A stretch of DNA of 64,000 nucleotides, taken from the NCBI GenBank assembly GCA_016278505.1, contig JADQBQ010000002.1, forward strand, positions 1,123 to 65,122, in the 5' to 3' direction. The notes beneath the pieces were generated by a model, which had not been told where the DNA came from, searched no databases, and was given only the letters and a program-made list of their open reading frames with translations. The stretch comes from Clostridiales bacterium (GTDB taxonomy: Bacteria > Bacillota > Desulfotomaculia > Desulfotomaculales > VENG01). The position numbers were made by a program, and so were the translations under genes. This document shows, piece by piece, positions 6,742 to 50,167 of the stretch (the first letter of the stretch is position 1; every line of letters begins with the position of its first letter).

Positions 6742-6752
6742 CAGATATCAAG

Positions 6753-6790
6753 AAAAACGCGCTAAATCAGTTCCCTTAGCGCGCTTTTTT
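6753..6790 (-). terminator. Rho-independent terminator after adenine deaminase
   Basis: CGCGCTAA...TTAGCGCG stem with A/T tracts on both sides. Confidence 0.7.
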
Positions 6791-6853
6791 CATACTTTTC
6801 TAAAGTGTAAAAAACTCTATTCCGGCCAGCACCGAATAGAGTTTTTTAAACCA

Positions 6854-35346: not shown

Positions 35347-35607
35347 TTATTCCCCTGCTGGTTTATTAAGAACGCCTGCCTTGTTAAATAAGTCTCTGAC
35401 AGTACCGGTAAGCTGTGCCCCTTTACCAATCCAGTCTCTCGCCTTGACCTCGTCAATCTTAATTTCTACCGGCTCTTTAAGCGGATTATAATAACCAAGT
35501 TCCTCAATAAACCTACCATCACGGGGCGAACGAGAATCAGATACCACTATCCTATAAATGGGATTCTTTTTAGCTCCAATCCTTTTCAATCTAATTTTAA
35601 CGGCCAC
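35347..35607 (-). CDS. rpsP: 30S ribosomal protein S16
   Basis: [29 protein letters not shown]. Confidence 0.98.
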
Positions 35608-35642
35608 CTTGTTGTCACCTCCTTTTTAAAGTATAGGCCATC

Positions 35643-35933
35643 CTAGGGACCGAACGGTCCTCTCAGGTTGTTGACAAAGCTGTGTGGTTAACCTGTCTTT
35701 TGCGCCCGCTCATTGCAATTCATCTCGCAGGCCAGGCTAAGGCTCAGTCTCACGCTCCAGCGGGATTCCCGCCCCATTCGCCGTCCTGGCTCAGGGGGCG
35801 GCCTCGCACGTCCTGTGCTCGGTCCCGCTTCCGCTTATCGACTTCGCCAAGCCTGGCTAGCTGCTCGATTCAATGCATTCGCTATGCGCAAAAGACAGGT
35901 TTGTCATCATCCTCTAGGGACCGAAAGGTCCTC
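35643..35933. mobile_element. MITE-like structured element, copy 1, with outer inverted repeats and a 20-bp flanking duplication
   Basis: Direct repeats CTAGGGACCGAA(C/A)GGTCCTC at 35643-35662 and 35914-35933; outer IR AGGTTGTTGACAAA (35665-35678)/TTTGTCATCATCCT (35900-35913); perfect 16-bp inner IR 35690-35705/35886-35901; homologous copy at 39396. Confidence 0.75.
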
Positions 35934-37284
35934 CTTTTTTGCCCATCATTAAGGGGTTTTTACCTGCTTTCCCCTTTTTCATAGACTTTTCTGCATCCAT
36001 AAGCTGTTTCATCATTTTTTTGGTCTGTCCAAACTGTTTTAGTAGCCGATTCACATCCTGCACCCTGGTGCCGCTACCACGGGCAATGCGCTTTTTCCTG
36101 CTGCCGCTGATCTCAGAGGGATTTTGCCTTTCGAAGGGAGTCATAGAATTAATGATTGCTTCTACGTAAACCAGTTCCTTCTCGTCTATATGCATGTCTT
36201 TTAATTTTTTATTGTTTCCCAGTCCCGGAATCATACCCATTATTTGGTCGATAGGACCTAGCTTTTTAACCTGCTGTAGTTGGTCTACAAAATCATCCAA
36301 TGTAAACTCCATACTACGAATGCGTTTATTTAACTTGGATACTTTTTCCTGATCGAAATTATCCTGAGCCTTTTCTATTAGGGTAAGCATATCCCCCATG
36401 CCCAATATACGGTCTGCCATCCGGTTAGGGTGGAATGTCTCCAGGGCATCCAGCTTTTCCCCAATGCCTACAAATTTGATTGGACGGCCCGTTACGGCTT
36501 TTACCGATAAAGCCGCTCCTCCCCGGGCATCCCCGTCCAGTTTGGTCAAAACCACTCCGTCCAGCTCAAGCCGCTCGTTAAATGTATTAGCCACATTGAC
36601 TGCATCCTGCCCGGTCATGGCGTCAACCACCAGTAAAATTTCATCCGGCTTTATCTCTGATTTAACGGCAAATAACTCTTCCATTAATTCCTCATCAATA
36701 TGAAGACGTCCAGCGGTATCAATAATCACTACATCTTGGCCATTATTGATTGCACTTTCTTTAGCTGCCCTGGCAATGGCTGGTGGCCGCTGTTTGTCAC
36801 CCATGGAGAAAACCGGCATGTCAAGTTGACTACCCAACACTTCCAATTGTTTTATTGCCGCCGGCCTGTATATATCCCCTGCTACCAATAGGGGCTTGCG
36901 ACCCTGTTTACGCAGTAACCTGGCCAACTTTGCAGAGGTGGTGGTTTTACCTGCGCCTTGCAGCCCCACCATCATGATCACGGTTGGAGGTTTGGAAGCC
37001 ATATTAATTTTACTTTCTTCGCCTCCCATAAGGCCAACCAGCTCATCATGTACAATTTTTATCACCTGTTGGGCGGGGGTCAAACTATCCAGAACATCGT
37101 GCCCTACCGCTCTTTCTCGGACTCGTTTCATAAAATCTTTTACCACTTGAAAGTTAACATCAGCGGATAAAAGAGCCCGGCGAACTTCTTTAAGAGCTAA
37201 GTCTACATCCGACTCATTTAGTTTTCCCTTGCTTTTAAGCTTTTTAAAGGCATCTTGAAGCCTTTCAGCCAGACTGGAAAACAC
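35914..37284 (-). CDS. ffh: Signal recognition particle protein Ffh
   Basis: GLQGAGKTT, DTAGR, TKLDGDARGG, AIINSMT..ER, RIARGSG. Confidence 0.98.
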   Translation of the reverse strand: MFSSLAERLQDAFKKLKSKGKLNESDVDLALKEVRRALLSADVNFQVVKDFMKRVRERAVGHDVLDSLTPAQQVIKIVHDELVGLMGGEESKINMASKPPTVIMMVGLQGAGKTTTSAKLARLLRKQGRKPLLVAGDIYRPAAIKQLEVLGSQLDMPVFSMGDKQRPPAIARAAKESAINNGQDVVIIDTAGRLHIDEELMEELFAVKSEIKPDEILLVVDAMTGQDAVNVANTFNERLELDGVVLTKLDGDARGGAALSVKAVTGRPIKFVGIGEKLDALETFHPNRMADRILGMGDMLTLIEKAQDNFDQEKVSKLNKRIRSMEFTLDDFVDQLQQVKKLGPIDQIMGMIPGLGNNKKLKDMHIDEKELVYVEAIINSMTPFERQNPSEISGSRKKRIARGSGTRVQDVNRLLKQFGQTKKMMKQLMDAEKSMKKGKAGKNPLMMGKKGGPFGP

Positions 37285-39320: not shown

Positions 39321-39395
39321 ACCTAAGCCTGGCTTGTTCGCTTTAAGTAGGATCGTAATCCGGCCAGCCTTCGGCCGGCCAGGGCTTGGTAGCTC

Positions 39396-39688
39396 AACCT
39401 GCCTTTTGCGCCCGCTCATTCATTTCATCTCGCAGCGCCAGGCTAAGCTCAGTCTCACGCTCCAGCGGGGTTCCCAAATTAATAAGCCTCATCTTAAGAC
39501 CAGATATTTCCGCAATGGCTTAGATAAGAGTTGTATTACGAAAACAGCGGTGATGCCATTGCTGTCCGCCGTCCTGGCTCAGGGGGCGGCCTCGCACGTC
39601 CTGTGCTCGGCCCCGCTTCCGCTTATCGACTTCGCTAAGCCTGGCTGCTGCTCGATTCAATTCATTCGCTCTGCGCAAAAGGCAGGTT
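39396..39688. repeat. Structured element, copy 2, with a ~90-bp internal insertion
   Basis: Collinear with 35690-35901; IR AACCTGCCTTTTGCGC/GCGCAAAAGGCAGGTT; extra segment ~39476-39566. Confidence 0.8.
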
Positions 39689-39736
39689 TGTCGTAATCTT
39701 ACGCCCAAACCCATAAAAAGGTAGCCGTGTTCCCAC

Positions 39737-40582
39737 TTAATCAGGTCTTAGTGCTTGGTAGCCTGCCAGCAGGCTTCTTGTCAATGGCCCGGGTTTACCG
39801 TCACCGATTTCGATATCGTCCACCCTGGTTACCGGGGCTACTTCATGAATGGTGTTGGTGCAAAACACTTCTTCCGCAGCCGTTAGTTCCGTGGCGGAAA
39901 AAGGTTCCTCCCTAACTTCTACACCCATTGACTCAGCAATTTGAATAACATACTTTCTGGTAATACCGGGAAGTATTTTGTTGCCGTTAGGATATGTTTT
40001 TAGTATACCCTGTTTAATTATGAACACATTGCTGGAGGCAGCCTCGGTTACAGTACCGTCATCCATTACAAAGACTGCTTCTACCGCCCCGCTCTTCTGT
40101 GCCTTGTGCTTAGCCAGAATATTTGCCTGCAGGGAAATGCTTTTAACGTTGCACATCTGCCAGCGCAGATCCGGGTGTGTAATTACTTTAATTCCTTCAC
40201 TGTACATAGATGGCGGAATTTCCGGCACATGCCGTACGGTAACTAACAGGTTAGGCTTTATCCCGGCGTCAAAGGTATGATTACGAGGAGCCGTTCCCCG
40301 GCTGAGCTGTATATAAACCATTGCTTCTTTAATGCCGGATTCTGTCAAAAGTTCTTCGCATATGGCGCCGATATCTTTTTCCACCTCAGGTAGGTCTATT
40401 TCCACGGCAGCTGCACTGGACTTTAATCGCTCCAGATGGTCCTGTAGTGCAAACATCTTTCCATTATAAGCGCGAATCACTTCATAAATGCCGTCTCCAA
40501 AAATATAGCCCCGGTCATTGACTGAGATATGAGCCTCTGCAAATGAGCCAATCCATCCGTTCAGATATACCAGTTCTTTCAT
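39737..40582 (-). CDS. dat: D-amino-acid aminotransferase (class IV PLP)
   Basis: DRGYIFGDGIYEV, RGTAPRNH, RWQMCNVKS, ILPGITR. Confidence 0.85.
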   Translation of the reverse strand: MKELVYLNGWIGSFAEAHISVNDRGYIFGDGIYEVIRAYNGKMFALQDHLERLKSSAAAVEIDLPEVEKDIGAICEELLTESGIKEAMVYIQLSRGTAPRNHTFDAGIKPNLLVTVRHVPEIPPSMYSEGIKVITHPDLRWQMCNVKSISLQANILAKHKAQKSGAVEAVFVMDDGTVTEAASSNVFIIKQGILKTYPNGNKILPGITRKYVIQIAESMGVEVREEPFSATELTAAEEVFCTNTIHEVAPVTRVDDIEIGDGKPGPLTRSLLAGYQALRPD

Positions 40583-40656
40583 ATTATCCCTCATTCGAAT
40601 AAATTAATTGACTATATAATATCTTTTGGATTAGCTAAAAGGCAATATATTATAGA

Positions 40657-49423: not shown

Positions 49424-50167
49424 TTACATACTCATGCCACCATCTACTGCCAATACCTGCCCGTTAATATAACCGGCACCTTCACTGGCTAAAAAGGAAA
49501 CTATAGATGCAACATCTTCAGGGGTGCCCAGGCGGTTTGCGGGGACCTGCTTGAGCATCTCCCGCTCCTTTTCCTGCGACAACTGAGCTGTCATCTCAGT
49601 AGCAATAAAGCCCGGGGCAACAGCATTAACAGTGATATTTCTGGAACCCAGTTCCCGCGCCAGTGATTTAGTCATACCTAAAAGTCCTGCTTTCGCCGCA
49701 CAATAGTTAGCCTGCCCCGGATTACCAATTATTCCTACCACTGAAGAAATATTTATTATACGTCCCCACCGGGCCTTTAGCATTTGCCGGGAAAATTTCT
49801 TGGCGCACAAAAACGCTCCCTTAAGATTTACCTGCATTACAGCATCCCAATCCTCTTCTTTCATACGCAATATCAAATTATCACGGGTTATACCCGCATT
49901 GTTAACGAGAATGTCTACTTTACCGAGAGACGCTGTTATTTCTTTAGCCATGCCATCAACAAAGCCGGGATCGGCTACATTTCCTTGTACAATCACCGCC
50001 CGTCTGCCCATAGCTTCAATTTCCTGCTTAACTTCTTCTGCCTCCACAATTCTGGAAGCGCAATTTATTGCCACGTGGGCGCCCTGCCGGGCTAATTCCA
50101 TGGCTATAGCTCTGCCAATACCTCGGGACGAACCAGTAACCAATGCTACTTTATTATTTACCCTCAT
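49424..50167 (-). CDS. fabG: 3-oxoacyl-ACP reductase
   Basis: TGSSRGIG, NNAGITRD, YCAAK, VDGG. Confidence 0.96.
   Translation of the reverse strand: MRVNNKVALVTGSSRGIGRAIAMELARQGAHVAINCASRIVEAEEVKQEIEAMGRRAVIVQGNVADPGFVDGMAKEITASLGKVDILVNNAGITRDNLILRMKEEDWDAVMQVNLKGAFLCAKKFSRQMLKARWGRIINISSVVGIIGNPGQANYCAAKAGLLGMTKSLARELGSRNITVNAVAPGFIATEMTAQLSQEKEREMLKQVPANRLGTPEDVASIVSFLASEGAGYINGQVLAVDGGMSM

Follow-up and report, generated by a model that had tools for sequence, protein, structure and literature searches.

The repeated element found twice in the window, the 64,000-nucleotide stretch of DNA analyzed here, is best explained as a whole as a mobile, non-coding element of ~250 bp that belongs to the TwoAYGGAY lineage, lands at hairpins and duplicates them, a reading to which we assign a probability of roughly 70%. 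TwoAYGGAY has been in Rfam since 2010 without a known function, and the main text of a 2026 preprint goes no further than to compare its spread with that of mobile elements (Li et al. 2026, bioRxiv 10.64898/2026.09.22.753630). The genus that includes the window's genome offers a clean natural experiment, in which five differing insertion sites show what insertion did to its target. The spread of TwoAYGGAY becomes with them a question with defined substrates: the element ends, the target hairpin and the folded strand.

The initial annotation described two repeats, each folding into a rod with a closing stem of 16 perfect base pairs. Both repeats, copies A and B, are present within the boundaries given there and are a single element; in a pairwise alignment, copy B corresponds to copy A with 93 nt inserted and ~10 nt lost in exchange (Table 1). 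The closing stem of copy A (AACCTGTCTTTTGCGC/GCGCAAAAGACAGGTT) has no mismatch over its 16 bp. Folding of copy A gave -102.8 kcal/mol for the plus strand (z -8.0) and -118.4 kcal/mol for the minus strand (z -10.9), values that none of 200 shuffled sequences equaled in either case. The minus-strand fold contains tandem G.A/A.G internal loops and places two hairpins on a three-way junction, reproducing the annotated GA/GA loops and the twin hairpins GCAC-AGGAC-GUGC and GCC-AGGAC-GGC. The compensatory differences reported between the copies are also there (T35696/A35895 to C/G, A35765/T35823 to G/C, and GGC/GCC to AGC/GCT). The ~44 copies in the genome and the covariation across genomes, both described below, indicate that this repeat pattern is not due to chance.

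On the plus strand, the element runs from (C)AGGTTGTTGACAAAGCTGTGTAGCT through the core to TGTCATYAGYCT, with conservation that extends beyond the 16-bp stem; both end modules are also present in two loci from other families (L085 and L092). The genes upstream of the two copies on the minus strand are SRP54/ffh (35914-37284) for copy A and a class IV aminotransferase (39737-40594) for copy B. A similar GC hairpin (CCGGCCGGCC..GCCGGCC AGGG) replaces the usual end module in the left flanks of five copies, namely copy B (hairpin at 39361-39395), C35:13399, C46:89940, C51:38217 and C55:100838. At least three of these five follow a truncated older copy, so that the hairpin resembles a module joining tandem insertions.

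Table 1. Features of copies A and B in the window, with the strand of the RNA sense.
Feature	Positions	Strand	Basis
Left copy of the duplicated target hairpin (CTAGGGACCGAACGGTCCTC)	35643-35662		19 of 20 positions identical to 35914-35933; single in the sister genome G001 at the empty ffh-rpsP site
3' end module, RNA sense (...AGCUACACAGCUUUGUCAACAACCUGA type)	35663-35689	-	Conserved beyond the closing stem in many copies of the genome
Copy A core: 212-nt rod, three-way junction, two GGA hairpins	35690-35901	-	Fold z -10.9; R1 241.7 bits; covariation
Hairpin 1, GCAC-AGGAC-GUGC	35806-35818	-	Minus-strand fold; loop GGA in 36 of 36 aligned members
Hairpin 2, GCC-AGGAC-GGC	35780-35790	-	Minus-strand fold; loop GG in 36 of 36, A in 35 of 36
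5' end module, RNA sense (AGGAUGAUGACA; family consensus AGACUGAWGACA)	35902-35913	-	Right flank TGTCATYAGYCT kept in own copies
Right copy of the duplicated hairpin, overlapping the last ffh codons and stop codon	35914-35933		Counterpart of the left copy
Copy B core with ins2 module	39396-39688	-	R1 186.9 bits over model positions 1-211; aligned to copy A
ins2, 93-nt extra branch hairpin (GCAAUGGC...GCCAUUGC) replacing ~10 nt by hairpin 2	39476-39568	-	Element-only BLAST matches
Copy B 5' end module (TGTCGTAATCTT on the plus strand)	39689-39700	-	Sequence
Older-copy remnant, decayed (39323-39360), followed by a GC junction hairpin (39361-39395); copy B comes next on the plus strand	39323-39395	-	Truncated 53-nt right end at the same site in G001

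A genome-wide BLAST search of the window's genome (G000; 3.92 Mb in 56 contigs) brought the total to ~44 copies, comprising ~27 plain copies that are 90-97% identical and 17 with between one and three additional modules, each at a fixed place, together with truncated and mini derivatives. Each of the three modules (ins1, ins2 and ins3) forms a side branch when folded and does not disturb the rod. All BLAST matches of ins2 (13 of 13) and ins3 (3 of 3) lie inside elements, and 26 of the 31 matches of ins1 (97 nt) lie outside them. Module content differs at both sites that are filled in G000 and in its sister genome G001, indicating that the modules come and go at fixed loci.

The ins1 module is a dispersed repeat of its own (~85-97 nt), found for example at window positions 6750-6798 (G000:C27:7872-7920) and in 25 other places; it carries a CTTGCCATATATATGGCAAG hairpin and a terminator-like hairpin composed of an A-run, a GC stem and a T-run. 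The five ins1 matches within TwoAYGGAY elements are all at one position of the rod. The ins2 and ins3 modules are related to each other, and both start, in the RNA sense, with CGGACGGCAAUGGC, which contributes a further GGA. All three modules occur together in a 478-nt copy (G000:C13:53913-54390). A protein-coding reading of the element was rejected, since an open reading frame of at least 90 aa spans only 7 of the 44 copies and the base-pair covariation also speaks against it.

To follow individual insertions, we compared G000 with G001, a genome of the same genus whose flanking sequences are 84-98% identical. Among eight G000 sites, five are empty in G001 (the ffh-rpsP site of copy A, C52:321582, C41:82761, C56:39583 and C52:99513), one is filled in both genomes (C31), one holds a truncated remnant (the site of copy B) and one (C47:69166) has flanks that were looked for in G001 and not found. 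In the reverse comparison, the one G001 copy considered is filled in both genomes. Each empty site in G001 holds one hairpin, and its G000 counterpart has the ~250-bp element with that hairpin on either side. The clearest example is C52:321582, which reads AAAAAG-CGCCCTTACGGGCGCTTT-TTGCGC in G001 and ...CGCCCTTCCGGGCGCTTT-[element]-CGCCCTTCCGGGCGCTTT-TTGCGC in G000. The junction at the ffh site is less clean: 5 nt in G000 stand in for 16 nt beside the hairpin, downstream of the stop codon, in G001. The duplicated hairpin at copy A is formed by the last ffh codons (...GGPFGP-stop); ffh ends with TAG in G000 and with TAA in G001.

Similar flanks are also found among copies at large. Measured against mismatched pairs, left and right flanks are alike beyond the 95th percentile in 17 of the 44 copies of the genome (beyond the 99th in 11) and in 9 of 33 copies from other genomes (beyond the 99th in 6). 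The locus-specific flanking duplicates are usually GC-rich stem-loops: 9 of 15 duplicated segments fold within the lowest 5% of random genome segments, and the other 6 are not clearly hairpins, with that of L031 showing no fold at all. The duplications measure 16-31 bp (one is 46 bp) and track the length of the local hairpin. Insertion took the T-run away from one of the two hairpin copies. The evidence for mobility, as the initial annotation had proposed, and for duplication of the target hairpin is strong, and both observations are new as far as the literature was searched. A search of titles and abstracts found no paper on hairpin or target duplication by TwoAYGGAY. The words "target site," "duplication" and "terminator" are absent from the main text of Li et al. 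2026 (bioRxiv 10.64898/2026.09.22.753630).

The fold is held together by covariation on a scale that points to selection for structure. In an alignment of 18 sequences, 31 of 52 base pairs change on both sides, and 98.2% of cells pair, versus 33-41% when the partners are slid. In a 36-sequence alignment from ~30 genomes, 47 of the 52 pairs change on both sides. Pairing there amounts to 95.8% of cells, versus 33-37% with slid partners, and the covariation score is 0.72, versus 0.05-0.08; none of 500 shuffles reached the observed value, and while this alignment was fitted to the model, which favors structure, the slid control has the same bias. GA opposite GA is kept at three internal loops in 29, 16 and 29 of the 36 sequences. 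The GA strand contains 55 G.U/U.G combinations versus 10 A.C/C.A, an excess which indicates that the folded strand is the GA strand, i.e., the minus strand of the window. The claims of the initial annotation that the repeat is selected for its structure, and on this strand, are supported.

The same observations bear on whether the element could be an ordinary DNA MITE, derived by deletion from an insertion sequence whose transposase would move it via its 16-bp terminal inverted repeats, with the rod as a by-product. The perfection of the inverted repeat, the dispersal of ~44 copies with truncated and mini derivatives, and the sites filled or empty between sister genomes are all consistent with such an origin. 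However, covariation of the entire interior across the phylum would be needless for a DNA transposon, and the G.U excess over A.C is strand-specific. Further, conserved ends lie outside the 16-bp repeat, and the duplications follow the hairpin and have no fixed length. No longer element with the same ends was found, and an autonomous parent was rejected as a candidate, because all genomic BLAST matches, partial ones included, are elements or fragments; the only pair of split ends, 5 kb apart, encloses rplI, dnaB and purA. Searches of plasmid and phage collections likewise gave no match to the element. We consider a MITE quite improbable and favor the TwoAYGGAY-lineage element, with its dependence on a folded strand.

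For that strand, we infer that the folded form is RNA rather than single-stranded DNA (ssDNA). Were ssDNA the selected form, the element could be moved in trans by a hairpin-recognizing HUH (Y1) enzyme, in the manner of IS200/IS605 elements or REPINs. Sheared tandem G.A pairs stabilize ssDNA too, selection acts on one strand only, and the targets are hairpins, all of which would suit such a route. The genome, moreover, holds 15 Y1_Tnp matches, including seven RAYT-like proteins, and in Pseudomonas TwoAYGGAY adjoins REP arrays, according to the main text of Li et al. 2026 (bioRxiv 10.64898/2026.09.22.753630). There are also 6 RVT_1 matches in the genome, and the presence of both kinds of gene does not decide between a Y1 and an RT route. 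Transposase, HUH and RT genes were sought beside the copies, and none adjoins one. Against ssDNA, IS200/IS605-type insertion causes, to our knowledge, no target duplication. In three complete genomes, 35 of 49 copies have the GA strand running with replication (35 versus 14 in a hand tally that assumes symmetric replichores), a ratio no larger than gene-direction bias could explain. The RAYT-like protein examined was also not found in 12 of the 36 element-positive genomes. We therefore regard movement as ssDNA as rather unlikely and retain the view of a TwoAYGGAY-lineage element that probably folds as RNA.

The seven RAYT-like Y1 (HUH) paralogues are ~260-320 aa long with a C-terminal extension and are encoded at C5:86076-86972, C5:92966-93862, C26, C36, C41 (two) and C48; small IS200-type Y1 genes are also present in G000. 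Relatives of the 299-aa RAYT-like protein occur in 112 of the 151 genomes sampled from the order. As an obligatory mobilizer, the protein was rejected, because no relative at E<=1e-15 was found in the 12 element-positive genomes mentioned above, among them a complete single-contig genome (G058) with 34 copies.

The initial annotation recognized no named family. On sequence and model scores, however, the element is to be classed as a diverged, expanded sub-family of the TwoAYGGAY lineage (RF01731), a Bacillota form with a long basal rod. The relation lies below the Rfam gathering cut-off, which for this 168-position model is 43 bits. The whole window gave no match to Rfam at the gathering level; copy A gave no TwoAYGGAY match at E<=10, and positions 35600-36000 gave only two chance lncRNA matches. 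Scores of RF01731 against copies in the same genome (27.8, 23.8, 22.3, 19.9 and 18.4 bits) are 15-25 bits below the cut-off, and those against copies in relatives are 30.1-38.5 bits, on the strand corresponding to the minus strand of the window. Three of the own copies (27.8, 22.3 and 18.4 bits) nevertheless align full-length to model positions 1-168. The element lies outside strict Rfam membership.

We also built R1, a covariance model based on 18 element copies of 6 genomes. R1 found matches in 36 of the 151 genomes sampled from the order and in 32 of the 151 genomes of a phylum sample (28 of 129 genera), with at most 16 candidates scored per genome, so that copy numbers from these surveys are lower bounds. 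A class-level sample turned out to consist of genomes from that order alone and contributed no further results. Seven of 20 R1-found loci that were tested pass the RF01731 cut-off (44.7-64.4 bits) at the same position and on the same strand. The canonical TwoAYGGAY locus of the genome is in turn recognized by R1, at 43.7 bits (E 6.7e-9). It is by this continuum, together with the sub-threshold RF01731 alignments, that the element is placed in the lineage. For annotation, this means that an expanded sub-family of ~44 copies escapes Rfam. The canonical locus (L046, G000:C56:92265-92422) scores 43.8 bits with the Rfam model, has the loops CAGGAC and CAUGGAC, and is without a BLAST relative elsewhere in the genome, which harbors both a canonical singleton and an expanded branch.

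In RF01731 as in the element, one basal stem bears two hairpins in succession, each with an A(Y)GGAY loop; the stem contains tandem G.A pairs, and both are multi-copy and occur in Clostridia-type Bacillota. They differ in that the rod of the element is ~25 nt longer on each side than the 168 model positions, with end modules beyond it. The loops read A-GGA-C in the fold, and some own copies have AUGGAU or AAGGAU. Among the 36 aligned sequences, the preceding A is present in 34-35 and the following C/U in 34 (hairpin 1) and 27 (hairpin 2); 25 and 14 sequences, respectively, lack the middle Y that would separate A from GGA. The TwoAYGGAY motif is an entry in Weinberg et al. 2010 (PMC2864571), and tandem G.A pairs in its stem and binding by CsrA were put forward in the text of Gardner and Eldai (PMC4333381). 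Three features that the initial annotation arrived at independently, i.e., tandem G.A pairs, loops resembling CsrA sites and a mobile-like spread, are already published for TwoAYGGAY. What is new here is the set of ~44 copies, the empty and filled sites with hairpin duplication, the very strong covariation, the G.U excess, the neutral private mutations and the co-occurrence with csrA.

With respect to genes, 41 of the 44 copies are downstream of at least one. The GA strand had been described as the sense strand of the upstream gene; this holds for copies A and B (ffh and the aminotransferase) and fails as a rule, being only a bias over all 44 copies (24 sense, 10 antisense to both neighbors, 7 convergent and 3 divergent), with a binomial value for sense versus antisense of ~0.03, a hand estimate on counts from a crude ORF caller. 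Mutations in individual copies show little sign of constraint. Singletons in the 27 plain copies number 44 on 142 paired sites versus 19 on 68 unpaired sites and create G.U and A.C combinations equally often (10 each, a small sample). Variants common to several plain copies, by comparison, give 58 Watson-Crick, 13 G.U and 7 A.C combinations and are mostly compensated. As it stands, the structure is filtered at propagation and not upheld in each resident copy, and private mutations look neutral. This drift of single copies argues against each copy serving the host.

It is relevant to a reading in which the repeats are mainly a host regulatory RNA, either a CsrA-titrating sRNA or a 3' UTR stabilizer or terminator similar to REP/BIME, with copy number reflecting host use. 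The invariant pair of GGA hairpins, the position of copies behind genes with their sense bias of 24 to 10, and the co-occurrence with csrA described below speak for host use. The flagellin leader likewise has a GGA hairpin and AAGGAGG, and the CsrA idea is itself in print, in the text of PMC4333381. This explanation nevertheless appears highly improbable, since two genomes of the same genus disagree at five sites, relatives carry anything from 1 to at least 34 copies, and ten copies are antisense to both neighbors. Singletons, moreover, hit paired and unpaired sites alike, with no preference for G.U, and insertion deprived one hairpin copy of its T-run and did not add a terminator. A mobile TwoAYGGAY-lineage element fits these observations better.

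The genome contains fliW, csrA and flagellin genes, in that order (L065, G000:C55:6606-9761), an arrangement shared with Bacillus subtilis. A GCA-GGGA-UGC hairpin lies in the flagellin leader, ~24 nt ahead of the AAGGAGG ribosome-binding site. In the order sample, csrA was found in 33 of the 36 element-positive genomes versus 53 of the 115 element-negative ones. Related genomes do not count as independent observations here, and csrA goes along with flagellar genes. The three element-positive genomes without a csrA match are 70, 92 and 95% complete. Element and csrA occur in the same genomes in 8 of 10 members of family f10 and 4 of 13 of family f20. Such co-occurrence is necessary for a CsrA link and says nothing more, and shared ancestry or motility may explain it. 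From its loops, the element RNA is a candidate CsrA-binding RNA, and its near-exclusive occurrence in csrA-bearing genomes provides a concrete organism and RNA for the CsrA hypothesis. Titles and abstracts on CsrA and sRNAs contained no experimental test of TwoAYGGAY.

In the scheme that we propose, the repeat behaves like a non-autonomous mobile element and inserts at GC-rich palindromic hairpins, mostly intrinsic terminators; the target of copy A was the hairpin formed by the last ffh codons. After insertion, the whole hairpin (16-31 bp) stands on both sides of the element. This arrangement suggests that the stem-loop is cut twice, at either base, and the gaps are then filled in, which would amount to a staggered cleavage around the hairpin. 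It is the GA strand that has to fold: the rod, the tandem G.A loops and the two A(Y)GGAY loops are kept in spreading lineages, and single inserted copies then drift neutrally. Most copies lie in 3' UTRs or between cistrons, in sense more often than antisense, and their RNA would bear two GGA hairpins ~28 nt apart, the geometry of a CsrA dimer site.

It is possible, if doubtful, that this scheme extends to TwoAYGGAY in general. TwoAYGGAY would then form a class of non-autonomous mobile elements that depend on their structure, span phyla and insert by a chemistry not yet described, a class that homes to palindromic hairpins (terminators in Bacillota and perhaps REPs in Pseudomonas), is integrated by cuts at both bases of the stem-loop, duplicates the hairpin much as the CRISPR repeat is duplicated at spacer integration, and plants paired CsrA sites in 3' UTRs. 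If true, the planted 3' UTR sites could rewire CsrA control, and CsrA or another GGA-loop binder might be a host factor for movement of the element.

Several known systems resemble the element in part. Like the REP/BIME, ERIC, BOX and Correia repeats, it is short, structured, extragenic, located behind genes and modular, in its case through ins1, ins2 and ins3. Those repeats occur in narrow taxa and duplicate either a short target of fixed length or none. We know of no phylum-wide covariation of a 52-pair structure in any of them. The sRNAs CsrB, RsmY and RsmZ share GGA in hairpin loops (ACAGGAC and CCAGGAC in the element) and the presence of csrA in the genome. The element, however, has only two sites per unit, has no promoter of its own identified, and is dispersed and mobile; its CsrA binding is putative, and the CsrA of the present genome is the FliW-partnered flagellar kind, unlike the setting of CsrB, RsmY and RsmZ.

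The closest counterpart is the extended TwoAYGGAY of Pseudomonas, for which the main text of Li et al. 2026 (bioRxiv 10.64898/2026.09.22.753630) describes multi-copy loci flanked by repeats and REP arrays, suggests both Csr/Rsm sponging and a mobile-like expansion, and calls the link between the two unresolved. As reported there, it resembles the present element in its high and variable copy number, its flanking repeats and its arrays of REP hairpins at a fixed place, and differs in having extra hairpins and a 3' pseudoknot, where the Bacillota copies have an elongated basal stem instead. Relative to that main text, empty sites and hairpin-length duplications are shown for the present element. 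Divergent doublets, which are enriched in Pseudomonas according to the same source (bioRxiv 10.64898/2026.09.22.753630), are also seen in other Bacillota, with elements ~120-400 nt apart at G292:C49:38066-38620 and 49526-50077, G292:C84:16723-17558 and G225:C28:1998-2602.
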